A stretch of DNA of 64,000 nt from Ascidiella aspersa (GCA_963924565.1 OZ004612.1:28396001-28460000); one strand, 5' to 3'. Positions 1,546 to 61,700 are shown, counted from the first letter of the stretch. Made by a program: numbers and translations. The notes: a model not told the origin generated them from the letters alone.

Positions 1546-4131
1546 TTACATCCTATATAGTTCATTTTCCACCACTTGCTTCTCATTGGGTCCGGCCATC
1601 TCATAAGCCGCATTGTAATCAGGACCATCGCCCCTTTCACTAGCTCCACCATGGGCTTGGTATAGTTCGTTGTCGACCATTTCTCGCTGCTCGTATTTCT
1701 CGTACACGTTTCCCGGCCGGTTGTTGCCGATTGGTATGGTGTCGTTTACGCCGAGTGGACTTGCCTTTACTCCCCTGTTTTGCAGGTTGGCGACCATGAC
1801 GGCTTTAGCTGCTTTCAGTCGTATTCGCCTGTGTAATAATAAGACAAAAACTATACAATTTTTTGAATTTTGATCATGATAGGGGAGGCTTGTTCAAAAA
1901 ATTTCTGTCAAATTTGTGTTTTGTGCAAATTATTTTAAGGCGGTTCAATCAACTTTTCTTTAAATACATTAGTGTACACCTGGCACAAAATTTAAGGTTC
2001 CGGTGATTTAATGCAAGGTATTTTATAGTTATTTCCGTTTACAGAAATTCCCATTGACATCATTTTTAGGAACACGGTAAACGTCGTAAACAAGCTCCTA
2101 GAATAAAATCTTATATTCTTCCTTAAATTTATTAACTATACCTTTGCCATAGAATCAGAATGACGACTATTCCGATCAGCATTAATGCCACAGTTGCTCC
2201 AATCAAGCCATATGTCAGGTCTGAAATGTATGTGTGATTAACGTGTATGTTGATTTCACTGCTCAACGTCAATCAAAAGACGTGTATTGAACTTACTTGC
2301 GTGTCCCTGTGATTGCGATCCCAACGTTGTTTTTAGCTGCTGCAATGTCGTTAAGGCAGTGGTCATCTCAAGTGCGTCGGTCATTTCATTTGCAGTTGCA
2401 CTTTTCGTATTGGTCTTTCTGTTTGCGGTTGTGAATACTTTTGACGATATACTCTGAGGGTGTCTGATCGTATTAGGGCATTCTAAATGTAGTGAGTAAC
2501 TTAAAATGCAATGTCCTTAGTTGTATATTTAGGTGTCAAAAATAAACTTACTGTAATACTTTAGCGTATTACAAGAATTCTTATTGCGGGGAAACGACAT
2601 ATTAAAGCTTGAACTTGTCTTAATTTGAAATTGGATTGCGCTATTTCCAATGTATTTCTGTTCGGTACAATGCGGTTGACTATTATTCTCTTCTCCTATT
2701 AAAAACAGAAAACATCCCAATTAGTATATGTGCCTATTTTCGAACTACTTTATAGTATGGCAAAAAGTTGTATACTTAAATGACACCAATTTTCAAACTT
2801 TGGTTTCAGTTGTTCATTAGCTGAAAGTGTATGATCCTGGGTAAAATTTATGGTCACATAACAGATAACTTTGGTTCCGTCAGTTAGAAATGTAATACCC
2901 TCACATTCTGTAGATATTTGTACATCACAAGTGCAACCTTCCGGTGGTAAACCTGTATTTCGCAGGATAATAAATAGTTATTACATAGTATCACCATTTC
3001 TCTCAAATCGCATCTACAAAACGTGTTGAAATCGACAGTATACGTCAACTGTTTATGCGATAGGTCGGTGTTTCCGCCTATCTAAGTGACAATTAGTCAG
3101 ACCAAATCTGGAATAAGACTTTAGCGTCCATTGGAAACGAAGTTATGCTATACATCAGGTATCACCCCCCTATGCAATGATATTACTGTACTTTTAACCA
3201 ACTAATGGGACTGTTATAGGTCTTACGTGAGTTTGCTGAACTGAAGGGTTGTGATACTGGCGTGGTCGACATTATCATATTGGTCTTTTTGTTTGTAGTT
3301 GTTTTTCTTGTAGGTGATGTTATTGGGCGAATTTGGTTCTTGCTTGAACAGTTAAAATCTAAACAACATACGTCGCTGTAAACTTTATATTTTTAACCAC
3401 TATATGGCAAACCTACAGTGCGTAGCACGGTTAGAATCCTTAGAAGAAGTTTCTCCAAACGATACGTTGAAACTATTTCTTGCATTGATTCGGAAGTTAA
3501 AACTGTTGTTTCTTTTTTGCATTTTGCAAGTTTGGCCACCTTGATTAGCCACCCATGTAGTGAGACCTATAGGACGTTGTAGATATAACCTAACGTAGGT
3601 TTTCTCGCATTAAAACCAAACTTACCAGGCAAGCACCAGTCTGCAAAAGCCTCTTTCACATCGCTTATATTAGGAGGTAATAAAGCCTGAGCAATACTTA
3701 TAGTCACGTTACAGATCGTATTCCTTCCGTCGGATACAAATCCAAGGGTTCCATTAGAAGTAGATATAAGCACACTACACATGCATTCGTTCGGCTGCAA
3801 TTCCACCGTCACTTAAGCAAAACAAAGGTTATTAGCTGTTATGTTAAAATTCACGTAAAATATTTGTTACTGCAACTAATACTGATTTTAATTTAAACGC
3901 AATAATACCAGGTTAGGAATAGGATTTGATTTTACACTTTATGGCAATGATAAACGCATATCGATTTAATAGAATGGTCAAGTTTTACTCATAGAGTCAC
4001 AACATCGTCACCTCTTTTTACTTAGGTAGTTATGCACTTTTATTTTATACTTAAGTCTCTTTAGTGACCTTACCTTGGTTTGTAAATAGAATTGTCAGCA
4101 GTCCAAGTACGTTTTCTTTTTTAATCTTCAT
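1546..4131 (-). CDS. Receptor gene A: type-I TM protein (~464 aa) with two tandem unassigned ectodomain+stalk units and a tail with 2 NELY motifs
   Basis: Exons 4074-4131 (signal MKIKKENVLGLLTILFTNQ), 3626-3811, 3417-3566, 3227-3358 (stalk), 2776-2952, 2552-2695, 2297-2482 (stalk), 2142-2220 (TM LTYGLIGATVALMLIGIVVILILW), 1546-1828 (EMVDNELY...QVVENELYRM). All junctions are GT-AG and phase-consistent. Confidence 0.85.
3023..3146. repeat. Intronic copy of the sequence upstream of gene A
   Basis: gacagtatacgtca...gtcggtgtttccgcct...tctggaata...tccattggaaa aligns with 4190-4315. Confidence 0.85.
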
Positions 4132-4189
4132 ACTTATACCCAACTAAGTTTCGTTCATGGCGGCTACAACATTACTTAAGCAAATATAC

Positions 4190-4315: not shown

Positions 4316-5093
4316 TTATGTTATGTTGATGTTATTTTATGTTATAATGACTTAGGTTAGCTCAAAATTAGCAATATTCCTGTATTTGGCTTTCAGAAAT
4401 TATTTTCTTTACTTTGTCAGTTTCTTGTTATTGAACGTAAGTCGAATGCAGTAGTGGTATATCACATTTAACAATTTAAGCACACGTTTTCCAATTTGCA
4501 ATGTCGTCTTGCACAGAAATAGCCCTGTTTTTCATTGCATGAATCAATTCGAAGATTACTCATTGACGGTTTTTATTAAAACACAGTGGTAAATATTCAA
4601 AATAATTGGAAAGATTCCAAACCATAAATTAAACACACACAATTTTATCACGGTTCGTGATTACCAAAGTAGGAAACGTAAGGTAGTTTAAATTTTAAAA
4701 GAAACTTTTTTGGTTAAAATCTTAACCCAAACTAATTGAGTTGGTTAAAGCGAAGCAAGGTTTCCACTAGGCTGCGCTATACAGTTTTTTAGTGTAATTT
4801 TATACATTTTACACGGCCATTTTGTAATAATCTTTACATTCTATATCGTTAAAAATGTTGAACTTCCGCCATGCAAGTAATTTTAAACGTTTTGACACCA
4901 CTGCAAAACAAATTTTTTATACGGAAAACTTTCCCGATTCTAAATATTGAAAAAAAAACTGAAAAAAACAATCGCCCTAGTGATAACAGTTGCTTTTGCA
5001 TATATACAAATTTATTAAAACCGTTGCTTTATACAAACAAACAAATAAACCTATTTAAGGGAAATTAACCCGATTCTAAACATTCTGTTGAAA

Positions 5094-8000
5094 TCAGTAG
5101 TTACTCCACTGGTCTCCGTCTTCATTGTGCGCCAACTTGCTTTGATAAAGCGAATTCCGCACCATTCCGTAATGACTGGGTGGATCGGGGTCCGCGTAAA
5201 TGTGCGATCCACCTTCTTCCGCATTCTGTTCCGCGATTCCGCCGCATTCCATGTATACGCCATCGCCATATTCGGTGTCCAAGTAGACCTGTTGGGTCGA
5301 TTGGTCAAAGGTAACTCTTCCAGTCGCCGAGTTTTCGTGCATTTTTTCGTTCCTTGTTAAGCGATTTCTGCAGCATTCGCAGTCCTTGAATCTGTCGAAG
5401 CGAACCTCGATGCCTGGTACACATTCCACTCTTCTGGGATATAATTACTTAAAGTAACATTTCGAGCATAATGGCTGGAGGCTGTAGCTAGACGTAGAAC
5501 GAATACCAAACCCATATTAAGGCAGTTACGATATTTTTGAACGTTTTGTTTATTCCAAAATGTAAGACGTTGCAAATGATTAAATAATTATTCAAAACGT
5601 TCAAAATATGCCACTTACTTCTGTATGGGCGTTGATATTTATGCTAGGTTTAACGCAACATGTTTTAACCTTTCAAACAACGATTAAAGCAACCTCTATA
5701 TTTTTATTTTTGATTTCTATATTTAAGTATATATATTTTCCTTGGTATACGTCATACAGCTGTAGGGAAGCTACAAAAATGATTCATTTGCTGTAAGCAA
5801 CTATAAGTCATACAACACAACCATCAATTTGAAATATAGTTTTTGGAAACTTTTCAAAAATAGTGCAAAGTTTTAAAACTATGAAAAGTAGGTATTAATT
5901 TAAGGCCATTGTTTATTAAAGTCTTTACTTTCGTTATTTTTACATAAGTTTAACGTTAGGTCATATTGCCACTTAGTAAATAACGTCCACCTCTCATCCA
6001 CCCATCGGCCGAACTTTTTTAAATGTTTTGAAGCTTGTTATACGCTATTTGCTGGTCCTCTTACCTACATACAATGATAACAACAAGTAGCACGAGAACA
6101 GTCACCGCAACCGCTGCAATTACTCCTGTGTGTGACGCGCCTGGCCTCCTGCCTATTTTAAAACATAAATGTTGGTGTTGACCTTGTGTAGTTTTACTGT
6201 AAGCTTTGAGAAATGCTCTAATAATAGGTTTCGCCAGGACTACGCTTGAATTGTTTTGTCCGTTATAAGTGCTTATTTTAAACACTTTTATTTTTTAAGG
6301 TGTATAACAAATGTAACTAAGGTATTTTAAGTCTATACCTGGTATAAACATCTACTACACTTTATCAGTTTCTGGGCGTTTTGTTCTAAACTATTTTATC
6401 CCACAGGTTAAGTTTCTACGAATTGATATTGGCGTTACAGTTTAATAAAATACCTGACACGATAAACCCCTTATATTTAGGTTACACTGGTTTCAAAACC
6501 AGAACTGACGAACCACTTTTTATCCATATGATAAGTGTATTGAGGCACAAAATTTATCAGCAAAAACACATGTTAAAAAAAACACTTTTACCTTTGTGCC
6601 AAGTAAACGGGAACTTTCCGCGTTGCGGCGTCCACGTTGTTACGTTTTCGTGATAATCGTGATCTGTAAAGAAAATATAGTTTATATTTGAGCGGAGAAG
6701 TAAAGAAAAGACATGCTACCAGTCATACTCAAAGAAACACAATCGCTTACCGCTGGGTATTCCTGACCTTTTGACCCCTGCGTAACAAACAGGGTTAAAT
6801 ATCGTATTCGACAAACAAATAGGGATGTCCGATAATATTGGATCGAGGCCGATAACCGATACCAATTTGTAATGTAAGCAATCGTCCGATACTAAGGTGA
6901 TATCGGTTCCAAATCGGACGAAAAACATAAGTTTTAGTCATGGTTTGCATATCTTTGCAGCGATTTTAGTCTTGAAGTGGATTTAAAAGACGATACTTTG
7001 CATTATTTTGTTGTTGACAGGACAGAAATACCGTCGTGTATAAACAATGTACCGAGGAAACAATTAGCATAGAGCGCCTTTACTAATTGCAACACACGTG
7101 ATATACAGGAAGTGACTAACACTGTATCATAATAACGGGACGGTCCATGCGCCATGGCTGTCTGCCACTTAACCTAGACAAGGTGCCACGCACGTCCAAG
7201 GAATTTATCTATATCACTCTTCGTGCCATTGACGCAACTTTAGCGGAAATTGTGAACGATAAGGTCTATACTTAAAGGCACGAACTAGTTGACGAATTTA
7301 GATTAACTAAATAAGTCCAATAACCAATTTGTTTTCGATGGAATCCGCTCCCACACCAAATGACGTCATTACTATACACAAACAAGCAAAATAGATGAAA
7401 CTTAAACGTCATGACGTAATTGGCCTCAGAGGTAACAAGTTTACAACTTGTTATTAACCTGCTTTTGTTCATAAATTTAGCTTTTAAATAAAATTCGCTG
7501 CGTTTCATAGCAAATGCCTAAAATTCCTTTTTAATTTACCGAGCCGATACCGTCCTCATATCGAGCGGGTACCGATAAAACCTCATGGCATCGGGTTTCG
7601 GCTCCGATTCCACATTTTTAGACATTCTTAGTTAAAAGGTCACAAAAGATACTATTTTGCAATTGATTTCATTTTTTCTACCGCTTTTAATGCAAGTTAA
7701 ATGCAACGCCTTTTTGTAACTGATTTAATTATTGTTACAGCGTTCAATGCAAATAGATCCGTGGTTCAATGCAACCTTATTGCACTTTTGTAAAATAAAC
7801 GTACTGAAATTGAATATACAACTATAACGCACCACCAGATCCGAAAGCCCTGTATTTGAGTGTAAATCCTTCGCCTGTGTCCCATCCCACTAAATGTATT
7901 CGAGGCCATGTTAGGGATTTGTAGACCGAACAAACGTGTGTGCGATGTGACCAAGTTACTTTTGCCCCTGTAAGGACAATACAGCTTCCCTTACTGAACT

Positions 8001-8805
8001 CTGTATCTTGAAGCCCTGAAAAGGATAATTTCGTTAATTGTGCTTTTGTTTTTTCAATGATTTTAAAATAGACTGGCTATACCGAAATTATAACCAACAT
8101 TTAAAATTACAGTTCAATTTTCTTAAAAATAGTGCATACTTTTATAGCTATCTGTTAAAATAAACCTTAATATTAATTATTTCGGATATTTTACATGGAT
8201 AACCTTAAGGGTAGAGATAAGTAAATAACTTGAAGAAATAAGAGTCTGCTACAATCGTGTTTACCAAACCTTTGAAGAAATTAAATTGGTTGCCCCGCCT
8301 TATTCTTACCGTGAAAATCGGCTCGTTTCAAAGTCAAGTCTCCCTGAAGAACCGAGAGCTTTACGTGTGTGAATTGGCTGGCGACTTGTTCGCTAATCTT
8401 AAAGTATTTGCATCGGCTCTTGACGGAGAAGTCGTGCACGTGTTCGTGGGCGTCTATCTTCAGGATGTGGTTCGATGCGCACGAATTGCCCGGTTTGCTA
8501 GTTAATGGCACAAAATTCCCACCTGTACGAATATCAACAGTGAATTAGAACCCAGTTTCGAAATATAGCATAGTACTATAGCTAATAGTTTTGTTTTCGC
8601 CTCACTTAAATGCAAAAAACAACAGTACAAAAGTTTTTTAGTACCATATAGATTTGCTGTTAACATTTGGGTCGTATGTAGTCTTACACTATCAAATTCC
8701 AGTTTGCTTGTTTGCTACAAAATTGTTAAGTTAAGGATTAATTTACAAACCTGCATATTCCACGAATCCAATTATAATATTGACAACTGTTAATAATATC
8801 CACAT
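5094..8805 (-). CDS. Receptor gene B: divergent CUB-like domain, short non-mucin linker, TM, Tyr-rich tail
   Basis: Exons 8751-8805 (signal MWILLTVVNIIIGFVEYA), 8310-8522, 7833-8015 (ends GEGFTLKYRAF, like the last CUB strand), 6751-6777, 6592-6663, 6065-6152 (TM GVIAAVAVTVLVLLVVIIVC), 5094-5367 (IYADPDPPSHYGMVRNSLY). Confidence 0.85.
6820..7630. mobile_element. Degenerate non-autonomous DNA transposon (hAT-like) in a gene B intron
   Basis: Ends tagggatgtccgata... and ...gacattctta form an imperfect TIR, with subterminal ccgata/tatcgg repeats at both ends. Related fragments occur near 26883 and 59337. No clear TSD. Confidence 0.5.
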
Positions 8806-9478
8806 ACTTTTAATCGATTTTACTTATAAATTGAAATAAAATGTATGACCATAGGAAGTTAGCTAAATAAAAATTATTTTTTTGATTAACTTTGGGTTTC
8901 TTGTTCTGTGCGGACAATACATTTGCTTCCGTCTTTTTATTTCCTTATAACTAGCCTTTCTTTTGGTTTCTATACAACAGGCGGCAAAGCTTGAGTTTTA
9001 CAACTTTGCAATCCTTTTATTGTTAGATGGTAACTTGCGAACCATATTCCTGAAACCATATCCTCTCTGAGGTCTTGCCAGCCAACATTTGAGCTGCTTT
9101 TTTCATAGTTCGTACGTATTAGAGTTTCTTAACGTAAGCTACAACACGTGTATCCTGTATGTCTGGAATTTTGTCTGAAATGACTAAAATTTGTTTTACA
9201 AATCTGTCCTGTTTTCGAGATTTAAGCTAGCAGACTTAACGATCTAAGTTTACGCTTTATTGACTGAAATCCACAACGACTAATAAACACCAATATAAAG
9301 CTATTAAAAAAAATAACACCGATATATACATCACAAAAAATACCAATGTACAGCTATTATGCTTAACGCCAAAATTGAAACAGACAATTATTTTTTAGGA
9401 CTGTTTATTCCAGAAACTCATTTTTTTCCTTTTAATTAAAAGCATAGCAAAAGTATTTTGTTTCATAGACTGTTTTTG

Positions 9479-11723
9479 TCATACATTCTTCTCGGTATTA
9501 TTCTCATGCGAATAGGATTGGTATAACGAGTTGTGTACCAATCCATAGTTATGGTCCGTTCCGTTTTCTTGATATTGAACATAGGTTTTATCACCAGCGT
9601 TTGCATGTGTAAGGTCAACTTTTGCATTGGTGTTGTAAATTGAATTTTCAACCATGCCGTAGTTGCTTTCGGCTGGGTTCGTTTGGCCTTGTGCCGAAAT
9701 TACATCATTTTTATCCGCTGGTGGAGACGATGTTTGATGATATATGGAATTATCCACCATTCCGTAGTGTGATTCCGCATTGTTGCTCCGTTGAATAGAG
9801 TTTTCCGCATATGTGTAATCCGTATTTTGGTTGCCGGCGTATGAGTCCAGGTTTTTGCTTTTCTTTGACGTTTTGTCATCGTGGCCTTTCCTTATGCATC
9901 TGGAATACGAATAAATTTAAATATTTTTTTTTATTTGGCTGTATTTGTGTTTAATAGAGACATTGGTTAAGGACATCTTACAGTTGGACTAAAATTAATT
10001 CATAATTCACGTGTTACTTTTTAGCTACCGCTTGAAACTCCAACTTTAAGCTAAGATTTTTAGACTGTTACCAAGAACAGATAATAATATATTTTCTTAA
10101 TATTGTCTCTAAGGAGTGTATTATATGCCTATTAAAGCAAGTTTTTTATTGTGTGAGCTTTGTTAAATTTGATAAATCAACTGGTTAGCAACATCACGTT
10201 TTACCTGAGGTATATAACAACAGCTATGGCGATGGCAAGTAACGGCAATGTTACACCGACAACAATTGCGGTGGTTGAATTGTTAGCATCTGGAATAAAA
10301 TAATATACTTGTAATTTGATTTATTTTTGTATACACGCCAATTTGACCAATCGCTTACCTTTAGGTGTTTGTGTAGTAGAAACAAAAAAGGGAGCTACAG
10401 TTGTAGTCGTTGTAACTGAAATTCAAAGTACAACTAATTAGGCGACTATTGTTATGGGTTTATAATAAATACCGGTCATACATAGGAAAATAGTCATTAT
10501 ACACGTAATACACACAATAATGTGTGATCCCATGTTTTTTCCACAAAGTTTTTTTTATCTTGCTACAACCCTAAACCATAATAACGTCCATTATAGTCAA
10601 CCTAGCAAAAACGTTTGGTAAACGCTTTAAGAACTTATATAGTTATAGTTTGCCTTTATATGCATAAAACTACAGTAGCCATTAAATTCGCAGTCCAACT
10701 TACCACCGAGAAATGCCATGTAAGTCAACTTTAATCCTTTTCTGGTTGTAATCGGAGCCACAAAAATGATTTTATCCCAAGACACCGGGGTGAGATTAGT
10801 ACAACCAACCCCACTGTTAACACCTTGTGAATTCCTTGCAATTAAAATGCAATCACCAGCAGAAAACTTCCTTCCTCCCTCTACAAACAAATATTGGATG
10901 ATATTTTTTCTGCTTTGCAGCTAAAAATACAGCACACAAGTCTATTTTACCTTGAAATGCGTTTACTGGCGCACTAATTCGTCCTTCCAGAACTAGCAGC
11001 TGTACCGCATCAAATCGCAACGATATGTTCATTCTAACTGGAATAATTTCAATTTTGTTCGAAGGAACGATTGTAAATGTTCCGTTGAAATCAGTGATCG
11101 AAAGCCATCTGGTTGAATTTCTTAAGGCCATAGTTAAACCTGAATTAAAATTACCTTTTTTGATTTAATCTTGCTGTAGTCAACATATATAGTCCGATCT
11201 TTAAAAAAACAATTGTAGAACATGAAATGAAAATTCTTATGACTTTTCTTTGAACATTAGGATCTTACAATCAACGGTTAAATCGGGGGATACGCTTATT
11301 AGTGTATAACGATGTTTTTGCAAATTTTAGCTATGATATAATTTTATTTATAATTCTGTCGTTTTATCCCTGTGGAATATGGTACAAAGAAACAATAACA
11401 CCTTTTAATTGCTATAAAGCATTGCTTCTCTAAAATATAATAAAATAGCAACCAATATGCCTTTGGCTCTACGCCTAATAAATACTAGTAAAATCCAGGA
11501 TATTCTTATTGATGTACAACGTTTTAAGTATATATAAAATATATTTTTCATATGTTTTCATTAATATATTGTTGGTTTTCTCTGTGGCATGGGGTATAAC
11601 GAAACGATAACACTTTTTAATTGCTGTAAGTACTACGGCATTAAATAATTTTAAACGAAACAACTTACCGCAAAAGCAAGTTAGCAGCATCAACGCATAA
11701 ACACAGTTGCAGTGCTCTGCCAT
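9479..11723 (-). CDS. Receptor gene C: divergent CUB-like domain, short stalk, TM, tail with three YG(M/L)VxNS(I/L)Y repeats
   Basis: Exons 11669-11723 (signal), 10951-11139, 10704-10880 (KGLKLTY), 10359-10415 (stalk), 10205-10289 (TM AIVVGVTLPLLAIAIAVVIYL), 9479-9899. Confidence 0.87.
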
Positions 11724-12859: not shown

Positions 12860-15569
12860 CTAGCTCCGTTCAATGCTGCTTTGATACAAGCTGTTTGCAA
12901 CCATTCCGTAATGGCTCCCTCCTTCTATTTGCCCGTCTTGGTCACCACTCGCTTTTCTAGTTGTTTGGTTGCTGGCGCTGTCGTATATTACGTTGCTGGT
13001 CATCCCGTAGTGAGACGGCGGGCCACATTCGGCATACTGCTGGTTATTTCCCTGCGTTGTAGCAGCTCCCACAACTTCGTAAGTAGCTTGTTGCTGTGGT
13101 GAATTGGGTGCTGGTCGACTGTGGAACCTGCTCTCGGCGTTTGTGCTAGCCTTAGGTTTACGAGATGAATTTTTGTGAACACGCTTCCTAAAGAAATACA
13201 AACATGCAGTTATGGTTGCTGCTAAAACATATACCTGGTTGCTTGACTTATGTTGTGCCGTAATAGTATATATCCAAAGCCATATTTTTGCATTCGTTAT
13301 ATCATAGAAGACCCAAATGTTGATTGTTAAACTAAAAATAATCTTGGTTTTATATTTAATTTATGAACATTTCAGTGGTAATCTTTTTTTGGCAGCTTAG
13401 AAGAAATCAATGTAGACTGCTTTCTTACTTGAGAACTGTTGCCAGAATTAGAAGCATAATTCCAAGAAAAACTCCCACAATAATTCCAGCCATAACGTCG
13501 CTGCCAAGGCCACCTATATAGAAAGAATATTAACATAAAATATTAAAATAAACGACATCCCAATTACCAATACTAAAATACTGAAAAAAATATGAAGTCA
13601 AAAAAATCCAAAACTGAAAATTAGAAAAACAATCTTTCGTTTAATTAAAGTTGTATGATACGTACAAATTTCAATACCTGAGTTGCCTAAAGGTTTTGCG
13701 GTGGTTAAACGATCGCTGTCTACACCGGTTACTGCATAAGTTGTTGCAGACCCCACCATTGCATCTGTAGTCAGTGGTTTTCTGGGTGATTTTGTTCGCA
13801 CTATGTTTGTCGTTGTTTCAAGAGGTTCGGCTGGTCTTGTTGCCAATGTCAGTATTGTCTTCGTTTCTTAAAACACATGTTATTTTGGAATAGAATAGCT
13901 GGACCAAAGCTCATACTGGTTTATTTAGCTTTTTTTGAACGTTTCGAATAAATCTTAGTTACACGAAAGAGGGAATACAAAAAGTTCAGAAAAAGTTTTA
14001 AAAATTTAAAAGATATATTGAAAATGAATAAAGACTTTCTAAAAGCTTTTACCAAATGCAACGTAAACTTCTCTATGAGATTTGGTATTTCTTTCAATGT
14101 AATTTTATTTGTGGTACTGATTGATGTGTTAAGTTTGTTAGCTGAAACGTACCTCTTGGCCCAAAGCTTGACCTTATTCTTGATGATAACGTAGAAATCG
14201 TTCCAGGAATGCTTTGTTTTGCTAAAACATAACAGAAAATAACAAAGTAGATGGAATCAGTATATTATTTGAAAATATGCTTTCTTTTAGGTTTAATAAA
14301 CTATGCAAAAATACGTTATAGAATAAGTTTTAGTAAACAATACTGTATTACCGACATGTTAAGGGAATAGATAGAGTGACATTTTTACATCATGTACAAT
14401 AACGTTCTATAATTTTAACCCAAATTTTAACTAATTTTGCCTTAATATTTTACCGCTTAACGTTATTGTGAATGTTTCTCCTGGGTTCGACGCAAATGCG
14501 ATAAGTCGCATATCTCTCCAATTCTTGGCCGTCACAACTTTACACAAGCCGTTGTTTTCCTGTGTTTTTTCTGAATACCTCAAAATTCGTACTGTTTCTT
14601 GTTCCCCTTTCGTTTCACATGTTGCTGAAACAATGCATCTATTTTATCGATTGTTTTTAGTTGTGTTTGTCTTTATCAACAGGATAATTGAACACTGTAT
14701 AAAAAGGCTTGTTTGGTAACCGTATTTGTCTTTACAAAAAACTGAACACTAGTTCACAAATTGTATTTTCGTAAAAAGGCTTAAACGTGATACAACAAGC
14801 ATAACTTTGAAGCACACTCAAGTTGGTTGATGACTCAAATGATATACCATTGGCCGCGTATTCCTACGTGAGTGACTCGAATCTCACCAAAGTGCTTTGC
14901 TAGCACTATATTGAACGTTTGTTGTTCTTTTTCTTTTTTCTTTCAGTTAACCAGCATATTTGCTTCAGAGTCAGACCTCATTTATTTATTTAACGACTTT
15001 GGCGTGGTTTATCTACTTATTTAAGATGTTGCTTGTATTACTGTATAGTCCTTCTTATAATCAAAGTGCAGTTTACATATTCTCCACAAAATATCCCGGC
15101 CAACTTTTTTTTTATATCACCAAAGATCCAACTTTATACTTACTATCAAACGAGGTTATGTTCAGAAATATCGCGCTTGAGTTTTCCAAATGCAAGTCGA
15201 TTTGGTCATTTTCTCCCCCATCTATTGTTAACAAGCATAATCCTTCTTCTGGCGTTGTATTAAACCTTTGGTTGACCGCTGACTGTTCCACCTTGAGCGT
15301 GTTTTTGCATGGGGCAGACAACATAATTTATAGTTTCTACCTAATTCGATAAACCAACAAACTGATGGAAAGATTGCTAGGTACGTTACATTACCAGCCA
15401 ATTATGTGACTAATCTGGATATTCTGTCTCATTATTGTCTAGCAGGTCTGTAATATACGCGGTGCTCTTTGTTTTTCCAAACGTTTTAAACCTACTAACC
15501 TGAGCATGAAAGCTCATTTAGTTGTACAGCTGGTATTGTCTGACTTTTTTTAATTAACGCGATATACAT
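12860..15569 (-). CDS. Receptor gene D (5' end apparently defective; possible pseudogene): divergent CUB-like domain, stalk, TM, Tyr tail
   Basis: Exons 15144-15314 (expected acceptor reads TG, not AG), 14454-14624, 14153-14221, 13678-13866 (stalk), 13429-13513 (TM VMAGIIVGVFLGIMLLILATVL), 12860-13187 (YAECGPPSHYGMTSNVIY...SHYGMVANSLY). Candidate first exon 15500-15569 is not hydrophobic. Confidence 0.7.
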
Positions 15570-23000: not shown

Positions 23001-23302
23001 CTATATGCAGCTTACAGGTTCCGATGATAGGATCGATTTTGAACGTTTCTTTCTTTGCTGACACAGTTACCGTCCTTACACACGACTGGCAGTTAGCTGC
23101 ATGAATAGAACAAGTATAAACATCATTGGAGTACATTAAAGTGTTACAAAACGCGTTTTAAACGACTTATGCCATTAATTATTCGGTATTATAACGTAAA
23201 AAAGTTAAATATATTGTAAATTTAAACATAGTTAAATAGCTTACCATACTGAATGATCTGATTCATCCAAAGTAGGACTCCCAATAATTTATAAAATTTC
23301 AT
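20027..23302 (-). CDS. Receptor gene F: divergent CUB-like domain, mucin stalk, TM, long Tyr-rich tail
   Basis: Exons 23245-23302 (signal), 22923-23096, 22153-22320, 21673-21726, 21341-21535, 20802-20883 (TM GVIAAIVIVILLLIALVVALVL), 20027-20462 (SHYGLTSNVAY, SHYGMTQNSLY, THYGMVENSLY). The ectodomain is clearly paralogous to D and E (GxCxLxIxGG; WxxM motifs). Confidence 0.88.
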
Positions 23303-25743: not shown

Positions 25744-25992
25744 ATGGCACACCGCGCATTTCCGGCCTACCGAAAGGAGTAGGATCTTTTAAACTTTTAC
25801 GAGGTTATTGGATCGCGTATTTCGTCACACCATTGGGCATCGGCCTGTAAAGTATGTTGTTTGAAAATTTCTTTAAATTAAATATGACACACCGTGAATT
25901 ATCTTTCTACCGAAAGCAGTAGTATCCCCTAACTATTTTAAGGTTATTGAATCTCGTATTTCATCCCACCATTGGGCATCGGCCTATAAAGT
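25744..25992. repeat. Tandem duplication of the gene G stop-codon region
   Basis: 25744-25853 aligns with 25883-25992; the copy encodes LYRPMPNGVTKYAIQ-stop versus LYRPMPNGGMKYEIQ-stop. Confidence 0.85.
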
Positions 25993-49049: not shown

Positions 49050-52000
49050 TTATTTCCCAAAAGTGCTTGTTGTTCCTTGCTCAGCAAAGTGATGCGAGTT
49101 ACGATCCCTCTTCAAGAAAAGGACGTCTCCTATCACGATCCTATCCTCCTCCTGAACTTCACTAGAGACCTCCATCTTGATCTTATCTTCCTTCGGACCT
49201 TTCTCGACCGTTGCGTAGATTGGGATTTCTGGAGGAGTGGCGGATGTAAACGTCTCCTCCTCCTTGAATTTGTCCTCTTGCTTCCGCTGTCTTCTGAATG
49301 TTGAAGGCTTTCCCTCCCATCTTCGGAACATCGTCCCGTAGCGAAAGTCTCCAGGAGTATAAGTGCTCTCCCGCATCCGATCTTTTAACTTATCTTCATT
49401 TCTAAGAAAGGAAAATTGATGTCAACTGTTCGCTATTTATATACGGGTGAAAAGACTCATTTTTGAGCTGGATTTACTTAACAGATGTAGTATATTGCTA
49501 AAATGTATGAACTGAAACATTCATAAACAGAATGTGTATAATCTGTAATCAAGGCCTTCATGAGCCGTAATGACATTATATTGGTTACCAGTTGCCTAAG
49601 AAAGGAATAAATCAGTCGGTAATACAGGCTGTTGGTCCCCCCTTAAATGAGGTTTTACGTACTAATAGGATGCAGCAGGCAACGGCGCTACCAGCTACCA
49701 CTGAGTCTATGTAGCTCGGTTGTTAAAGTGACGGTCCAGTATGGCCAGAGGTCGTGAGTTCGAACCTCTTCACAGGCTAGTTAGTTAGGCCAAGTGATTT
49801 CGGTAAGTTTTTTCTAGGCCACACGTTACTATTATCAGAAGAAAATTATCTTTAGTGGTATTTAAAATTGCGCTTAAAAATTAGATACTAACCATGATGA
49901 TATAAGGTATCTTTATGTTTTAAAGGTCTTTTTAAACTGCCTTTCAATTTACTATATTTGGTTTGATTTACGTGGCAGCATTTGAATCACGTAATTTATT
50001 ACGTCGTGGATATCTGTGTATAGGCAAACGCTGATCGTGGGTTAACTGAGTTGCATTTATTCATAGCTACGTCATCGCTATTTGGAAATGTATTATGATC
50101 TTTTGGGCGCAACCTTTTCCGTGATATATCACGATGTGATTAATGTACACTTTGTTTATACTTTCTTACCGGCCATCTAAGCCTTGATACCTAATGTCAC
50201 AGTCACCCAACTACTAATAAAGCTACTGCAAAATAGGTTATTACGCTTACCTCTGCATTGTAATGCAAATGCACACAAGGAGTAGAATAAGAAATGCAAA
50301 TCCGCCGATGGTTGCTCCTATTATAGTTGGCACTAGTGAGTCAGTTGAAGCACCAGCTAACGTGGTGGTGTCTTTTGTTTTTGCTACTATTGTAGTAGTG
50401 GTTGGCACTGCGAAAAAACAGGTTTACATTTGTCACGTTACTTGTATGGGCAATAGAAATTTTCTACAACGTGAAGTATTTACTTATTACAAAGTTGTTT
50501 GTAGAAGGAATATCATAGCCAATACAGAACTATATATTTTAAACGTTTCGAATAATACTTTATTCATTTTTTAACATGGTAAAGACAGCACTGATTTAAT
50601 GTATGTACAGGATTCGAAATATTAACCAAATGCCATCCAATTTTGTTTATAGTTTCATATTCGTTCTACGTCTAACTACAACCTCCAGCCATTATGCTCC
50701 AAAGTTGTTAAGTTTACAAAAAAAAACAATTTATGTTTTCGTAACCCCTGTATAAGAATGTTTACAAAGGCAACTGAAGGCTTTGAAGTGTGAGAATGAA
50801 TATGGGTATGAAGGGGCATTTATCGTTCTTAATATTCGATTAAAACCTATACTGTCTAAGGTGGTTAATTAGGCATGCTGTATTTCATGAATTGTCCTTA
50901 ATGAAAGCAATGATGTGATTTTATGGTTCAACCAACTTTTTCCTGGATCCGAATAAGCTGAGCTAGCTGAAGGGTTATCCGTGACACTTGTGCGTGTTCT
51001 TGTCAGTCGCAAGTCTAAATTCAAAGTAAAAAAGTACCAAAACAAAACCTTTTCTTCAGACTATAACAACACTTTTTCGGAACTATATTTTTAACCCAAA
51101 ATCGTTCGGCCCAAATTTGCTACATTCAACACGTTTTTCAAATTACATAATCCTGTACATAAACTAAAGCGCAAAAACTTTGTTTAAATACCTCTTAGGC
51201 ATTCCGCTGTCTTATATGCGAGGCGAAATCCTTTTCCCTGTTCTGCTGCATTGGCGTAGAAGGCAAGTTGATAAGCCGATCTATTGGTGAATATGTATTC
51301 CCTTTGTTCGTGTCTGCACAGGTCTGGGATGTTAACGCACTGTAGAGGGTCTATTAGCTTCGTGAAAAGAACGTAGCACACCTTGGGTACAGTCTTGCCG
51401 CACAGGGCATAGCGCGGTTCTGTGAATATAAGCAACAAATGGAAGGGTTTCTAATTGCTCAATTGGTTGTTTTTCAGAAACTGTACGTTAAATCAAAATT
51501 ATAGCCTTGCGCTTGTAAACAAATGACCACAACTACTGAGAATGAAAGCAAATTAGTAAAGACTGTGTTTGACCAAATTAGTAAAGACTGCGTTTGACCT
51601 AATTAGTAAAGACTGTGTTGACTCGAAGTAATATTAAAAGTCATTTACTTTCTAGAAAATCAAAAAAATGTCCTTCTTCGAATACCGGTTATAGATTTAA
51701 TTAGGACAGTTTCTCAAATTTTATCTATTCAAAAACTATTATTCAACAATTAAAAAAGTCATTTATTAAACTTTTTCAACTTTTTGGTACTTGCCGTACT
51801 AACATGTCGTTAACTCTAAATTTGGTTCTGTATTTGTTTTTGTATGTCTATTTAACATTTCGACGTAGTTGTTGTCACAAACATAGTAATTTTATCGCTT
51901 TGTTGCGAGCTTTGGCGCAAAACGTAACCTAAGCCTCTGAGATATCACATTTCAAATGTTCGAAAAAGTAAAAAACAAAGGCTCAAGCAGCATATCGACC

Positions 52001-53143
52001 GTGCATTGCGAGTAGAAATGTACGCAAATAAAATCTTTGGTATTATAAACGAAAAACGGTTGTTTTTGTTAATTAAAACAGAAAACAAGGCTGATTCGAC
52101 CTTTCGAGATTTTCTTTATCGAGTTTATATCGTTACAAACATCAAACGGAACCATTGCTGCCGAGATATCACGTTAAACCGCTTAGGCTGCAGCTCGCAA
52201 TGTATTACGAGTAGGAATAAACTTCGTAAAAACTCAAATCTTTAAATATATACAAAAACGTCTTAATCTGTACAGAAAACGACTTGCGCCTTTTTCTGCT
52301 AAATTTTCAATACTGAGTGCAGTTGAAACCTAAATGAAATCGGTGATACAACATTCTGAAAACCCGAATCAATTTAACGTACCCACTCCAATGTTGACGT
52401 CATCAATGCACAGCTCCCCTTTTAAGTCGTTGCAGTACCCCGGGTCCAGGGGGCAGTTATCCGGGTTCTCCTGCACCCCCAATTCCTCGAAGTGTAAAAT
52501 AATGACGTCATTGGCCGGGTCGGCCAGAAAGGTCCAAGTGCACATCTGGTTTGGGGGGTAAGTCTGGCCCAGGCCGTACATAGGCGACTGAATGTGTCCC
52601 TCTCTGTTTGCTACTGATAGTTGCTCGGTTGGTATTCCGCATGTTAGCAGGGTAGCGCATCGGCAGCCTAAAATATTTACAAAAAATCGGTGCAGCTAAA
52701 TTACGGTTTATGGTAGGCCTACGTACAAAATCGTCTCTGGTGCACATTTTAGGATTTTGTTTTTTTCCACTTTGAAAATATACCAATAGTAGCTTTAAAG
52801 AAACAAGTATAACATAAAAAGATTATTTTAAACAGGAAACACTTTTCTAATTGCTTGCTACAAAATGTAAATAAATCTATCCTAATACTTTAACGACCCT
52901 CCAGATTTGTGATAGTTTAAATAGTTCCCTTAAATGCACAAAGCTTCTTAAGGCCCCTTACTGTGCACCAAAGCATACCTTTTATTTAGTTAAATTTAAA
53001 TTATCTTTTGCAGCCTCTTATCATGTTAAACGCTCAATAAAATATTTTAAAATTCACCGAAAAGTATAACTATAGAAAGAAAGGAACTACTCACAGTTTA
53101 AAAGTGTAAAAATAACCACAGAAACCAATCCCTTGTATTCCAT
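49050..53143 (-). CDS. Receptor gene L: CUB domain, stalk, TM, charged tail with IYATV and no NxLY
   Basis: Exons 53095-53143 (signal MEYKGLVSVVIFTLLN), 52383-52667 (GHIQSPMYGLGQTYPPNQMCTWTF), 51192-51419 (GKGFRLAY), 50937-51014, 50251-50407 (TM IIGATIGGFAFLILLLVCICI), 49050-49401. Confidence 0.9.
49704..49790 (+). mobile_element. tRNA-derived SINE
   Basis: A-box-like tagctcggttg and B-box gagttcgaacc at tRNA-like spacing; dispersed related copies occur in the window. Confidence 0.65.
51550..51622. repeat. 3 x 25-bp intronic tandem repeat
   Basis: aattagtaaagactgtgtttgacc repeated three times with small variants. Confidence 0.85.
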
Positions 53144-55032: not shown

Positions 55033-57527
55033 TTACACTTGTCTGATCCCATCGTAATCTTGCCCGGCCGTTGCTGCTGCTGTAGGATTATCGTCCATCC
55101 GCATATATATGTTCTCCTCATCCGATTCCGGCTGGTCGTACAGGGTTTCCGGATGAGGGGGCGGTATAGCTACGTCATCCCACTCGTTGTTAGAGCTGTA
55201 GCGCGCGTTAAGCTTCGCTTGTTCATCTGGGCTTCCGCTCAATGGTGGTTCGCCGCTTCTGTCGGCTTTGCTTGGCTTTACCCTGACAGAATAACAGGTC
55301 TGTTTATACGAGGCAGCATTTATAGCTTCTGTGAGATTTCAATGCAGCTTTAAATTAAACGTCTGTCCAATTTTCAAGTGTCCAGAAAAAATTAGGTGGA
55401 CGACTATGAAAAAAAAAATTAACACGTTTTCTCTTTTTGTCCAACATTTTTTGTAAAAAAAGTAATTGTAAAACTTTGAGTTGCACATTTCTAGAACTGC
55501 ACTTTAGTGCGATCCATTTAAATTGTTTAGTTTGAAATGTTAATCCAAAATTAAACTACAAATTAAAGCGTGTTTTGCGAATTACGATAACATGTTTTTA
55601 AGAGAGTGGACCTGTTCGTACCTTTTAAGAAATACCCCGTTCTTAACGTTCGATGTCCCTAAAAGGATCTAAATTGACGTAATTTATGGACTTGAACTAG
55701 ACAAATCAAAAATATACTTGCGCCTCAAAACGATCAAAATCGAATTTACTTTATTTTAATGCAACAAATCGTCTCATCAACTACCAACCTTCTACAACAC
55801 GCTATTATCGCAACCAGTGCAATCAGCATAAACAACAAGTTGCCGGCTCCAAGAATTGCGATTACTGTCACATTCATGTTTCCATCGGGAATTAGTGGCT
55901 GCCGAAAATTTCTAGTCCCGTTGTTTTCACCATTTCCACCACTTCTGCTGTCAACTTGGGTGGCTACATTCTCTCCAGACAGTGTTGTGGTTGAGCTTGT
56001 TGTCTTTTTTGTTGTTGGTGTTATTGGTGTTGTTTCTGAAAGGTTTGACGGTGCTTAATTGTTAAATAACTGAAACCCTTACTTAAAACTTAAAACCACG
56101 GTTTGTAAAAGGTAAATAATATATAGGCATTTGTTAATATTGTATGGTTGTATTTAGTATAACAAGACGTTTTGTCAACTTTTGAACTTTTTTTGTAATA
56201 ATTCTAAATTTCAACTTTTTACTTACCCACTGAACACTTAACAGTGGTGTAGTTAAGCTTGAAGCCTCGTTTGAGTCTTGAAAGGCCGCTTGTGAACCTT
56301 ATCGAGTAGTTGAGGGATTTTGTTTTGACGACTTGCATATTAACATTGCTGCAATGACGGGTAAAGTCCCCACATGTTGAAATATTGATCGATTTGCTTG
56401 TCAGGATGTAGCAGGTTGGGGGAACCACCTCGCCACACAGCGAGAACTTAGGGTCTGTGGAATATGACACGGTTAATTGGTTTAACTGTGGTGTTCACCG
56501 GGAATTAAACTTATCTGTTTTTTTTTCTGTGTTCTTATTTATTACGTGAAACTTATGCAATGTAAAAAAAGTACAAAATGGCTATTTTAATGGCTGAAAA
56601 TTTCTGCCTAATATTCTCTTGATATGCATTATAGTCATATTTTTGTCAAAAAAAATTTACAAAATTGTCATAAATCCGTTTACAATGGCGTCGACAAGCT
56701 TATTTAGCATAGAATTAGTTTTTTTATTTAGGCCTACAATTTTTTTCATACATTGTTATCTCATAGACTTGAGTTACTATAATCACCATCTGATAAGGAT
56801 TTACAGTGATAACATACCTAATATATACTGCCGTTGCTTCACATTGATATATAATAGGTACATGCAAACAAAAGATATTATCAATTTGAAAAGCTCTTAT
56901 CATGTGTTAGCAATGCTATATTGATTTTAATTTTTATCCTTACCCACGTTAATATCCAGCGCATCCACGCAATCTCCATCGTAGCAAACTTCATCGCTTC
57001 TGCATTTACTGCCCTTTCTTCGCACACTCATGTCCGTAAACTCGACGATTGTTACGTCACTAAGGGTGCTGCCCGGTAAAGTCCACGTGCAGGTTTGAGA
57101 GGCAGGGTAGGTTGCGCTTGTGCCATAACCTGGGGATGTTATGATGCCCTGTTCTTGCGTTATGCCCAGTTCATTAGGGGATAGGGCGCACATAGAATTG
57201 CAGACACCTGAAAAGTTTTAGTTGTTTAAGAAGGTGTCTTTTTTTAGCTAAATATTTTTTGCTGCTAAGGTAAGTTGAATTTACCAGTCTGGCGCGCACT
57301 TTAGCTTTTTGGGGGCTCGAAACTAGAAAAAGTAGCACTGCGAATGTTTGAATTGGCATCTTTTGCAAAATGCACTGCAAAGAAATCACAAATAAGCATC
57401 TAAAATCGCAATCTGCTACTTGACAACTAAAAACAGAAGCGGCAACTAAAATACAAAGCTTACATTTAGGTTGTTAATATAACTTACCTAACAAGCAAAT
57501 TGCACTTGTAATACCTAGTAGAAGCAT
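55033..57527 (-). CDS. Receptor gene M: CUB domain, fused stalk+TM exon, tail with YDQP and YMRM
   Basis: Exons 57488-57527 (signal MLLLGITSAICLL), 56944-57207 (QGIITSPGYGTSATYPASQTCTWTL), 56227-56454 (RGFKLNY), 55789-56053 (TM VIAILGAGNLLFMLIALVAIIACC), 55033-55282. Confidence 0.9.
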
Positions 57528-58752: not shown

Positions 58753-61700
58753 TTACTGCGAGTCGCCGTAAAGCACATTTACCACTGTCTCCTTCTCCTC
58801 GTTCTCTGGCCTCTGATTGGTCGATTGCTCCTGGTTTTCAGGCCTCTGATTGGTCGATTGCTCCTGGTTTTCAGGCCTCTGATTGGCCGATTCCTTCTGG
58901 TTCTCTGGCTTCTGATTGGTCGCCTGCCTCGCATTGATACTGGTTCGTTCGTACAGCAGGTTAGTTGCCCTGGCTTGCTCGATATCAGTCAGTTTCTCAC
59001 GACTGCTTCCCGGTCGCGAATGGTAGAGAATATTTTCGACCTCCACGCGATTCGCGTTCGCCTGTGTTACGTCACCATTACTCGGGGAATCCCATTGTTT
59101 ACGTCCGTAGAGTATATTCATTTTTGTTTCCTTTTCTTCCTAAAAAAACAAAGAAAAAAACGGTAGTGCCTTAAGTTCACTTCCAACCTACAAAGTTAAC
59201 GAGCTATATGGTATTATTGGATTATTTTTTATGACGTCACGTTTTGACGTGACTTTGTGATGTCATCAATGAAAAATTGGCATAGCCTTCCTCAAATAAA
59301 ACTTCAAGACCTGTGCCTGTTAAAATCCGCCTGATCCGATATTATCGGACATCAATAGTTTTCAAAAAGCTCTTAAAACGTGGTTTAAAGCCTAATTTAG
59401 TTCTGTGTTATAATAACCTGTGATTGTGCCGCGTCCCGTATCGTGCTGTATACATTGTTGGGCTTGGCCGCCCGGTCGCCGTCGCTTAGCAACGCGTTGA
59501 CGTCATTGGCGGTGATGTAGCCGTTCGAGAGCGACGCCGAGTTTTCGTTGATGACATGGTCGTGTGACGTCATCGCCGCAGGCGCCTGGAACGAGCTGGT
59601 GGTCGGATGAGCGCTTCGTCGGTTGTTGGCCGGCAGGTTCTCGGAAGTGACGTAAGGGTTCACGACCTCTTCTCTTGGTGACGTCATAATTGGTGTTTTT
59701 CGTTTTTGTCTGAAATTTACCAAGGTCGGCTTGGATTTTATTTTTGTGGAAAGTAAGTTTGTTTATATAAATTTGATATCACATCGTTGAAATAGATATT
59801 TTGTTTGATTGGACTTTATTTTACTTTGTAAACTTACACTATAAACTTAAAAATCTCTATAAAAATATAAAAATATACAGGAATATTGATATCTTAGCAA
59901 GGTATTGATGTTAAAACCAAAAAGCCTACTTGGCCGTTGTTACACGTAAATTATTAGCAATTACAAACTAGTAAATATTAAAACAAAAATGCCCCAGCAG
60001 TACCTAGTGCTTTACACACCAAACGTGGCATATTTTGATATACATTTAGTGTTTAAAATGTTTTGTTTCCTAATCAACCACTAATTGCCGAAACATGCTA
60101 CATCGTTCCGTTAGGTTTCCAAGAATACAATACTCAGGCCAGAGGTTTCTTCTTACCTCTTCATATACAAGCAAGCCAAAATGATCGTTGTTAAAACCAT
60201 TAAAAACCCGACAACTCCTGCGATTATGTATATCAAGGTGGACTCTGGAATTAGAGAAGATATTTAAATGTTGTCACGATTACATAAAATGTAGTATGTA
60301 CCACAATTCATTAACACTATATAATTTATATAGCATCTGTTTACAAAAAAATATTTGTAGGCTTTTTTCATTTTTTTTAATGTAATTGGGGATTCGTAAT
60401 TCTTATATAAACCTAATTTGGTTTTGACCATTTTGTAACAAATATTTGCAAATGTATGCCAATTATAATTACATGCAAAACGATTACCGTCAAATGGTGC
60501 TGGCAAGCTTGTTGTAGACGAACTGTTTGAGGTTATTATTGTGGATGTTATTGTTGCTGTTTGAGTCGCCGTTGTTGTTGTAGTTTTTGTTGTTGTCGCT
60601 ATTCTTATAGTTCTTGTTGCCACTGTAGTTGACATTGATGTTATGAAAGGCAATGTTGTTGTTGTTGTAGTAACTGGTTCACCTCTAGCGTTTGAATCTG
60701 GCACAGAAATCAGCCTATTTTGTAATTTAGTAATAATGGTTAAGTTTGGGATAAAGGCAGCCCACAATGCCCAACTAAAATTACCCCAACGAATGCTATT
60801 CAAACCCTATGTAAACACGTTCTTCTTCATGGTAATTTCACTATTCTTTTAATTTTCCTACTGATTTGATCGCTGCAACATAAATGACCAAGTTCGGAAA
60901 CAATTGTGGTCTGCAATGATCCCTTGCTTACACTGCCACAAGATATACACACATAAATAGTTGTTTTAGAAGTGCGTATATTATAAACTCCTAGTACAAT
61001 TTGTCTATGTTATTTATACTTAAACCTGCTAAATAAATAGCTAAATTTTGAGCATAATACAAACGTATGAAACTAACCGTCAACTTTGACGTAATAATAG
61101 CTCATACGAAATCCAGTGTGATTTGCATTGACTCCGTCGGAATAAAACAGAACCTCGTAATCTTTCTTTATACTGTTTAAACGTCCTTCAACCGTTTTGC
61201 AATATCTCGCTTGTAAATCAGCTGAGGGTTTAATGCGGTCACGTGTAACAATATAGCATCGGGATATGTCTGTTGTGCCACAGATGTCCAGTGAATTTCC
61301 CTTGGGTTCTCCTAAAACATAATTGCTAAAATAAATTTCAAAAACAGTAAACAACGATAAATTCCAAAAAATGAATTGCAAGTCAAGAAGGTTGAGTAGA
61401 TCTACATCGTATTGATTAAGACCTCGACCATTTTGGCTTGAAATCAAATTTTTTGAATTAATTTTTTGAAATTTACACAAGCTACATTACAGATCCGTGC
61501 ATAGTTTGCTCAATTACAATGTAAATTAAGGACAACGATATTATATTAATTTTACGTTCGTGACAAAATAATTTTACCGTTTCCCAACGTTAGATGATCG
61601 GTACAGGAACCAGGTTTAGTGGACTGACAAAAATCTGTTTGTTTACAACTGCTGCTTATTGTTTCAACATGCAGTGAAGTGATTTTCAGGAAGAGTACTT

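Follow-up and report, generated by a model that had tools for sequence, protein, structure and literature searches.

Docking of phosphotyrosine-binding (PTB) domains on receptors without a kinase of their own is already known, and the closest known systems are compared here with an array of receptor genes in the tunicate Ascidiella aspersa. We analysed a stretch of 64,000 nucleotides (the window; GCA_963924565.1 OZ004612.1:28396001-28460000, or G000:C6:28,396,001-28,460,000 in the searched genome of 308.6 Mb on 75 contigs), in which 14 minus-strand genes for single-pass receptors (A-N) were modelled, most of them with a tyrosine motif of consensus M-V-x-N-x-[LI]-Y in the cytoplasmic tail. Among the systems compared, these receptors would work most like CD200R. 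CD200R has one docking site and immunoglobulin (Ig) domains. It signals through Dok2 by the motif EEDExxPYxxYxxKxNxxY, in which the proline is dispensable and a tyrosine stands at -8 (PMC8007030). The A-N receptors resemble it in being kinase-less and single-pass, in an NxxY motif without an obligatory proline and in a second tyrosine 8 residues upstream (here in 11 of 30 motifs); they differ in having 1-5 sites, a CUB or unassigned ectodomain and Val instead of Lys at -5, and in lacking EEDE. Lys was found at -5 in 2 of 30 motifs, Tyr was not among the commonest residues at -11, and no Ig match, hence no ectodomain of the CD200R family, was found in any of the 28 exon frames scanned with Pfam.

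The RET context I-E-N-K-L-Y is close to the V-E-N-S-L-Y of the array. RET Y1062 and the NPQY of Trk are PTB sites where Shc and Dok proteins dock (PMC2150770, PMC2901200); theirs are single sites in self-phosphorylating kinases, whereas the array tails are kinase-less and repeat the site. Integrin beta tails have two NxxY motifs, the distal one near the C-terminus, and a phospho-switch between FERM and Dok1 readers (PMC4479986, PMC8761493). The array, unlike them, has no integrin ectodomain, a motif spacing of 17-61 residues and nearly no Phe variants. The Botryllus fester co-receptors (FcoR) are clustered, diverse type I receptors with Ig and sushi domains and motifs of the ITIM (immunoreceptor tyrosine-based inhibitory motif), hemITAM (half an immunoreceptor tyrosine-based activation motif, ITAM) and YxxL types, and NPxY, PTB and Dok are absent from the main text of the review describing them (PMC12065747). 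They are like the array in genomic style but unlike it in domains and in dominant motif, that of the array being PTB-shaped; neither Ig nor sushi matches, as expected of the FcoR order IgV-sushi-IgC2-IgC2, were found in the 28 exon frames. The Alr genes of Hydractinia are reportedly also clustered, diverse type I receptors with mixed tyrosine motifs. CDCP1 and DCBLD1/2 combine a CUB ectodomain with kinase-less tails phosphorylated by Src/Abl-type kinases; they are single-copy and conserved, with several domains and SH2-type sites, whereas the array receptors have one CUB domain with Cys-rich inserts and a mucin stalk, and belong to an expanded array.

The tail motif and its shape

The gene models were built from splice signals. 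All 14 were open, with GT-AG introns except for one GC-AG intron in J and with intron phases common to A-N (phase 1 across the ectodomain, phase 2 past the transmembrane (TM) exon), and a signal exon was located in five (A, C, E, K and N). The receptor plan is one domain on two exons (three in A), a Ser/Thr stalk, a TM segment and a tail, 54-225 residues long, that has no enzyme domain. These are thus single-pass receptors and kinase-less, as an earlier note on this DNA had proposed.

Motifs were counted over the 14 predicted tails (1,585 aa with 94 Tyr) and compared with 2,000 within-tail shuffles. NxxY occurred 35 times in 13 tails (shuffle mean 9.0, maximum 19) and N-x-[LIV]-Y 28 times in 12 tails, with 1-5 per tail (shuffle mean 1.2, maximum 6), in agreement with the previous count of about 29 in 12 tails; genes L and M had none. 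N-x-[LI]-Y was found 26 times in the 14 tails (shuffle mean 0.6) and not once in 2,953 extracellular residues (75 Tyr) of the same models, and for [MLVI][VT]-x-N-x-[LI]-Y the 1,585 tail codons gave 21 matches, against two in the 126,411 codons that make up the rest of the window in six frames. The 13 motif strings quoted in the earlier note were all recovered, each encoded in frame by the minus strand within the last exon of a predicted receptor. Its assignment of the motif to the Dok PTB consensus held in part: 10 of the 35 NxxY motifs, in 8 genes, fit [YM]-x-x-N-x-L-Y strictly (shuffle mean 0.02), and 16 in 11 genes fit with Leu or Ile at -1 (shuffle mean 0.05), but exact M-V-x-N-x-L-Y occurred only 7 times in tails (11 allowing Ile at -1) and Val at -5 is Shc-type. 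NPxY was not enriched (2 of the 35, a number reached in 152 of 2,000 shuffles). The motif copies are paralogous and therefore not independent events, so the shuffle figures show that the motif is real and not how often it arose.

Over 30 motifs, we counted Tyr at -8 in 11, Gly at -7 in 12, Met at -6 in 16, Val at -5 in 19, Asp/Glu at -4 in 13 and Leu/Ile at -1 in 26. When each gene was represented by a single motif, the share of the commonest residue was 0.68 at -6, 0.69 at -5 and 0.71 at -1, and no more than 0.33 from +1 to +6. PTB domains read their ligand upstream of the tyrosine and SH2 domains downstream; a fixed Asn at -3, hydrophobic residues at -1, -5 and -6 and a free downstream side make the motif look like a ligand of PTB or FERM-F3 domains. 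The hydrophobic -5 of Shc ligands was present in 19 of 26 N-x-[LI]-Y motifs (V/I/L/M). Pro at -2, which is usual though not absolute in Shc ligands, was found in 2 of the 35 NxxY motifs, not above shuffles. Endocytic signals of the LDL-receptor type have an aromatic residue at -5 and Pro at -2; with Val in 19 and Thr in 5 of 30 at -5, the motif falls outside this FxNPxY class.

Several features favour a reading that depends on phosphorylation. After N-x-[LIV], Tyr outnumbered Phe 28:1 in the window tails, and Phe variants were absent from 15 tails of other loci (23 motifs) and from 16 foreign matches described below. The other 52 tail tyrosines had I/L/V/T at -1 in 22 cases (expected 9.7) and A/E at +1 in 21 (expected 8.1), a pattern of kinase-site type, and one tail repeats the motif as many as ten times. 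Integrin tails, by comparison, use NxxY or NxxF (PMC4479986).

The first motif lies 32-121 residues from the start of the tail. Genes B-G share a longer cassette, [SN]-[HN]-Y-G-[ML]-[VT]-x-N-x-[LI]-Y, in which another tyrosine stands at -8, and D-G have a third at -17. Tails B-G were alike at the DNA level around the cassette (blastn), and 10 of the 13 genome matches to its DNA pattern, against 2 for a control, fell in this array. Such confinement would suit a different function, in which the motif is an optimised kinase substrate or docking site, or a site for SH2 or other non-PTB domains, with half-sites such as S-H-Y-G-M-V and T-V-Y-N-E-L as real signals like ITIMs or immunoreceptor tyrosine-based switch motifs. 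The aliphatic -1 and acidic -4 would then serve the kinase, consistent with the residue counts above, with TVYNEL in 5 motifs of a second array at 28.75 Mb (Tyr at -4) and with 45 SH2 exon matches in the genome. However, ITIMs were not enriched in the window tails (5, a number reached in 93 of 2,000 shuffles), 6 of the 12 motif-bearing genes and the foreign matches lack Tyr at -8, and an SH2 reading leaves the invariant Asn at -3 and the hydrophobic -5 and -6 unexplained; we consider this function improbable. S-H-Y-G-M-V as an ITIM was considered and set aside, ITIMs not being enriched.

Candidate readers and the choice between explanations

Readers were sought in the same genome, where counts were made exon by exon and are lower bounds, and gene names were assigned from sequences and domain architecture. 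IRS-type PTB domains gave at least seven matches, read as talin (three), IRS (C4:4.94 Mb), two FRS2-like genes and one Dok-like gene (C1:14.23 Mb). PID domains gave at least nine, including a PID followed 4 kb away by an SH2 domain, read as Shc (C1:15.55 Mb), and others that we take to be Numb-, X11-, Fe65- and JIP-like genes. The Dok1 PTB consensus is [Y/M]-x-x-N-x-L-pY, a form that was not found in the literature searched. Met at -6 and Leu at -1 would point to Dok1, Val at -5 to Shc and a hydrophobic -8 to IRS; since Val at -5 is a Shc-type determinant, Shc is as good a candidate as Dok. The Shc PTB domain needs a hydrophobic residue at -5 and that of IRS-1 one at -8 (PMC3355962), and Dok1 contacts the phosphate through Arg54, Arg69 and Arg70 (PMC4479986). 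The Dok-like exon of the host keeps the equivalents of Arg54 and Arg69, and the IRS PTB domain keeps both its phosphotyrosine arginines. A word-indexed homologue search with the Dok-like exon found nothing. A predicted complex of the host IRS PTB domain with a 32-residue tail peptide of gene I, modelled without phosphotyrosine and without an alignment, had a score of 0.00, which counts neither for nor against binding. The FRS2-like genes (L025, C3:16.085 Mb; L027, C5:30.81 Mb) have an N-terminal M-G signal and G-N-G and G-H-Y in place of the PTB G-R-R, and the pair is possibly phosphotyrosine-blind.

We regard it as probable that the motif is a docking site for the PTB domain of a phosphotyrosine adaptor on kinase-less receptors. 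Within this explanation Dok and Shc would be about level as readers, IRS would be considerably less likely and an FRS2-like protein least likely. The signalling through PTB adaptors that the earlier note had proposed is in keeping with the ligand anatomy and with IRS-type and Shc-type adaptors in the host, but Dok was not singled out as the reader.

According to this explanation, the kinase-less receptors A-N would serve in recognition and belong to a tandem array that diverges rapidly. When they bind a ligand or cluster, a cytoplasmic tyrosine kinase of Src, Abl or Syk type would phosphorylate the tail; phosphorylated [MV]-[VT]-x-N-x-[LI]-Y would then dock an adaptor by its PTB domain, the likeliest adaptor being the host Dok-like protein or Shc, and the adaptor would relay to Ras/MAPK (mitogen-activated protein kinase) or cytoskeletal effectors. 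Neighbouring tyrosines (at -8 in B-G, at -4 in the second array, and in sites of the DLYAVV, IYSVV or VTYATV type) may prime the kinase or recruit SH2 proteins. We infer the expression of the genes as modelled, phosphorylation, PTB binding, the identity of the adaptor, the sign of the signal and an immune role. In the single Dok-like gene, 1 YxxP and 2 YxN sites lie in the last exon, and vertebrate Dok1/2 inhibit and Dok4/5 activate MAP kinase (PMC2150770); the signal of the array may be inhibitory, as with CD200R, or activating. The number of sites per tail might also tune its strength, as the earlier note proposed.

Several observations weigh against PTB docking. With E 0.004-0.006 to Dok5/Dok1, the Dok-like gene is a weak match and has Ser at the equivalent of Arg70, and both FRS2-like genes keep the first arginine and lack the equivalents of Arg69 and Arg70. 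Matches to a motif do not predict which PTB domain binds (PMC4985636), and motifs of NPxY type are mostly trafficking signals (PMC8007030). From one raw RNA run, about 6% of which was read, the evidence was thin, with low depth and few exon reads; reads over C and F lay mostly in the direction expected of minus-strand RNA, 4 reads in gene D lay in the opposite one, and no exon joint was seen among the 15 RNA rows listed. As set out below, 9 of the 16 foreign matches have no TM segment, and all fit the motif profile by construction, several copies being needed to score. The Dok1 consensus is matched strictly by 10 of the 35 NxxY motifs, and 2 of the 35 have the Pro at -2 that is common in Shc and IRS ligands. 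Finally, in 7 of 12 tails no more than 7 residues separate the last motif from the C-terminus.

The last point bears on the main rival, sorting or anchoring that does not depend on phosphorylation. A hydrophobic-x-N-x-x-Y would here bind a FERM F3 or Dab-class PTB domain (SNX17, kindlin/talin, Numb, X11, Fe65) and set the time at the surface, and phosphorylation, if any, would switch binding off. The distal NxxY of integrins binds kindlin and SNX17 (PMC8761493). In the sequences of the array, the position near the C-terminus, Thr at -5 or -6 in 7 of 30 motifs and the T-V-x-N-x-L-Y forms would be in keeping with a ligand of SNX17 or kindlin, and the host has the talin, Numb-, X11-, Fe65- and JIP-like genes. 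On the other hand, Phe almost never replaces Tyr, the lack of an aromatic -5 and the scarcity of Pro at -2 speak against the LDL-receptor class, sorting rarely needs 3-10 copies per tail, and the tails are full of other kinase-type tyrosines. We therefore consider sorting unlikely, though more plausible than the kinase or SH2 function.

The motif at other loci and in other animals

A scan for TM exons recovered 13 of the 14 genes in the window and a further 10 in its flanks, which puts the whole array at 24 genes or more across about 170 kb. The motif was found in 3 of the 10 flanking tails, one with 10 copies, and two further matches seem intronic. The 10-copy tail exon (L006:2773-4269, minus strand) encodes 499 aa, among them 22 tyrosines and tandem repeats that hold ten N-[VA]-L-Y.

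The second array (C6:28,745,000-28,790,000, L028-L032) lies on the plus strand and has 7 TM exons and CUB-like ectodomains with W-P-P; its tails are two-site, MVDN[EV]LY ... QTVYNELY, the distal site containing Y-N-E-L. Motif-bearing loci were also found at C6:29.78 Mb and C7:31.04 Mb, and C-type-lectin receptors (Pfam Lectin_C) at C2:6,985,000-7,045,000 (L033-L038) carry the form V-V-D-N-P-L-Y, with NPLY as the rule and VTYATV, ELYSQV or DLYAKV as terminal sequences. A kinase frame lies among these lectin receptors (L037:576-1535). The loci outside the main array, which were chosen by the pattern, together have 23 motifs in 15 tail frames. Genome-wide, the MVDNxLY DNA pattern had 50 matches against 37 for a control, and therefore only clustered, individually read matches were counted; five pattern loci (L041/L042, L043, L045, L047 and probably L046) proved on reading to have no receptor tail.

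A 32-position profile made from 30 motif segments was searched among 1.84 billion proteins and matched 15, and a tail-alignment search added one more. Seven of these 16 are named matches: three from Strongylocentrotus purpuratus, one from Lytechinus variegatus, one from Ptychodera flava and two from Eriocheir sinensis. A TM segment was present in 7 of the 16, and in all 7 every motif follows it; the other 9 comprise tail fragments and probable false repeats (P0006 and P0009). Longer sea urchin models have lectin, sushi and EGF domains, and a model with motifs ahead of its TM segment (P0018) looks like two neighbouring genes fused. The crab TM proteins (P0003 and P0016, E. sinensis) have an unassigned ectodomain and VVENSLYE repeats, of which the annotated isoforms have between 4 and 9; a predicted fold of one crab protein (predicted local distance difference test, pLDDT, 33) was too poor for structure search, and an Atlas look-up gave no usable match. 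Because the matches fit by construction and need several copies, they show the spread of the motif and not its frequency, and ancestry and convergence are inseparable in them.

Plain tandem repeats within some tails, such as the 10-copy tail and the crab proteins, are what would be expected if one ancestral tail peptide had been amplified by duplication and short internal repeats and had no reader, as are the DNA-level similarity of tails B-G and the sparse RNA evidence. We consider this neutral spread very improbable: the core residues persist with flanks and ectodomains near saturation, the motif having been kept in tails while the ectodomains diverged to a median identity of 16%; the 14 models all have open frames, canonical splice sites and shared intron phases; and the same core stands on unrelated ectodomains in three other phyla.

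A literature search that largely lacked subscription journals found no paper on this receptor family or on the motif strings, nor any description of an expanded family built on multiple PTB-type sites or of one core shared by unrelated receptors of four invertebrate groups. Returning to PTB docking, it is conceivable, though doubtful, that hydrophobic-V-[DE]-N-x-L-Y is a general tyrosine motif of invertebrate immunoreceptors, a PTB-read counterpart of ITAM and ITIM. If so, the tunicate, echinoderm, hemichordate and crustacean arrays might tentatively be seen as independent expansions sharing one Dok/Shc-type adaptor through 1-10 copies, and, as a similarly speculative extension, tail exons could move between ectodomain types with CD200R as a surviving single-site example. 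Screens of receptor families in invertebrates usually look for SH2-type motifs (ITIM, ITAM). If unrelated receptor arrays of four invertebrate groups do share a multi-copy motif of PTB type, it would be a sequence handle for finding such receptors and would name a testable signalling route, with a bearing on the origin of non-ITIM inhibition of the CD200R type. The array also gives natural variants for valency, with 0-6 sites, with or without Tyr at -8 and with one Phe form.

Ectodomains and individual genes of the array

The receptors are not a single ectodomain family: genes G-N are related to CUB proteins, a second group comprises B-F, and A stands apart as a third. Pfam CUB was above cut-off for the first ectodomain exon of J, K, L and M (4 of the 28 exon frames scanned), with weak CDCP1_CUB_6 matches below cut-off for J and K; G and N were related to this group (phmmer, E <= 1e-6) and H and I weakly tied to it through G (E about 1e-4). 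No Pfam CUB match was found for the A-F ectodomain exons in the same frames. The B-F group had a hhalign probability of 4% to the CUB group (P 0.011 over the last strands) and the same two-exon phase-1 layout. The B-F ectodomain (window 7825-23157) has 100-130 aa on two exons, is beta-rich and has no Pfam or Atlas match; a genome search with the gene F exon matched only gene E, an Atlas look-up with that exon gave no usable match, and the predicted fold of the second B-F exon (pLDDT 68, predicted template modelling score 0.47, half a domain) was too poor for structure search. A word-indexed homologue search with the CUB exon of gene K found nothing. Ectodomain trees were dominated by long branches and left out of the conclusions. 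The combination in gene G of a CUB-group ectodomain with a tail of the D/E/F type suggests that tails and ectodomains are exchangeable, or that tails evolve more slowly.

Three contig sets from one study, one of which may be the source of the assembly itself, covered exons and introns of 4,900-24,899 evenly, with differences between them at numerous positions; the stretch is thus real and polymorphic. Among 40 of the 563 allele differences listed, 10 were in model codons, 6 of them residue-changing and none at a motif Asn or Tyr, too few for a selection test. The coordinates of the genes are collected in Table 1.

Table 1. Receptor genes of the window and their tail motifs (window positions; TM, transmembrane segment)
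Feature	Position	Strand	Tail exon(s)	Tail motifs (position)	Model
Gene A	1546..4131	-	1546-1828	MVDNELY (Asn 1671), VVENELY (1566)	Signal exon, three Cys-rich ectodomain exons (unassigned fold), stalk, TM 2142-2220; spliced GT-AG model
Gene B	5094..8522	-	5094-5433; alternative acceptor 5391	SHYGMVRNSLY (5156)	B-F-type ectodomain, TM 6065-6152; 5' exon not located
Gene C	9479..11723	-	9479-9899	Three Y-G-[ML]-V-x-N-S-[IL]-Y cassettes (9751, 9646, 9532)	Complete, 327 aa; sparse RNA reads over its bins
Gene D	12860..15278	-	12860-13187	YAECGPPSHYGMTSNVIY (12994), SHYGMVANSLY (12895)	Partial ectodomain exon (5' part unplaced)
Gene E	16737..19302	-	16737-16902	SHYGMTSNAIY-stop (16751); motif Tyr is last residue	247 aa; tail 54 aa
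Gene F	20027..23096	-	20027-20462	Six NxxY; four N-x-[LV]-Y (20248, 20164, 20095, 20044), one NPQY (20341)	
Gene G	25944..28830	-		YAECGPPPNYGMVDNRLY (26051), IVNNELY (25997)	CUB-group ectodomain (phmmer), D/E/F-type tail cassette (phmmer, blastn)
Gene H	30545..34762	-	31862-32023, 30545-30764	MTENVLY (30568), three residues before end	Reduced CUB-like ectodomain
Gene I	36072..38846	-	36072-36423	MVYNSIY (36260), LVDNPLY (36188), MVDNELY (36131); C-terminal MKDNVLF, sole Phe variant in window	
Gene J	40537..42804	-	40537-40765	MVDNVLY (40677), VVNNILY (40563)	Pfam CUB (E 4e-10); one GC-AG intron
Gene K	45099..47859	-	45099-45411	MVDNVIY (45293), VVDNVLY (45131); DLYAVV	Complete, 415 aa; Pfam CUB (E 1.5e-9); Thr stalk
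Gene L	49050..52667	-		Motif absent; IYATV, YGTM	CUB receptor
Gene M	55033..57207	-		N-x-[LIV]-Y absent; LYDQP, IYMRM, YDGI	CUB receptor
Gene N	58753..61984	-	59418-59709, 58753-59139	Five N-x-[LV]-Y (59459, 59118, 59034, 58962, 58779)	516 aa; CUB-group ectodomain
Next array gene, probable ectodomain exon	351..581	-	Just left of window (L011:8093-8846, with TM exon)	Three motifs	Probably part of the gene left of the window, from its position

The motif-less CUB receptors L and M (51187-57217), together with L001-L004, have other Tyr sites (IYATV, IYMRM, YEQP, YEEP) and are candidates for the opposite signalling sign. The end of the gene G tail with its stop is duplicated once just downstream (window 25739-26000, about 120 bp, 79% identity), and an internal repeat of 33-bp type (QSTNQRPENQE) in the gene N tail (58780-58925) lengthens the spacer ahead of the last motif. 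Short interspersed repeats lie in introns and spacers (5455-5640, 12459-12704, 13926-14036, 17686-17790, 22447-22837, 28854-29261 and 50628-50710), where depth in the DNA contigs was very high and some RNA reads also fell; one of the repeats looks like a tRNA derivative.

Two minus-strand TM genes at the array's right end (L007:6318-7013 and L008:1891-2439) have a small Cys/Trp-rich domain (C-V-W-P-Y ... W-C-P ... W-G-x-C) that recalls fibronectin type II but had no Pfam match at E 0.01. An intron-less DHX8/Prp22-like helicase gene lies on the plus strand about 95 kb to the left of the window (L020:2936-6622). Tunicates are the animals known to have a cellulose synthase gene, and the genome holds a chromosomal, intron-split one with a QRSRW motif.

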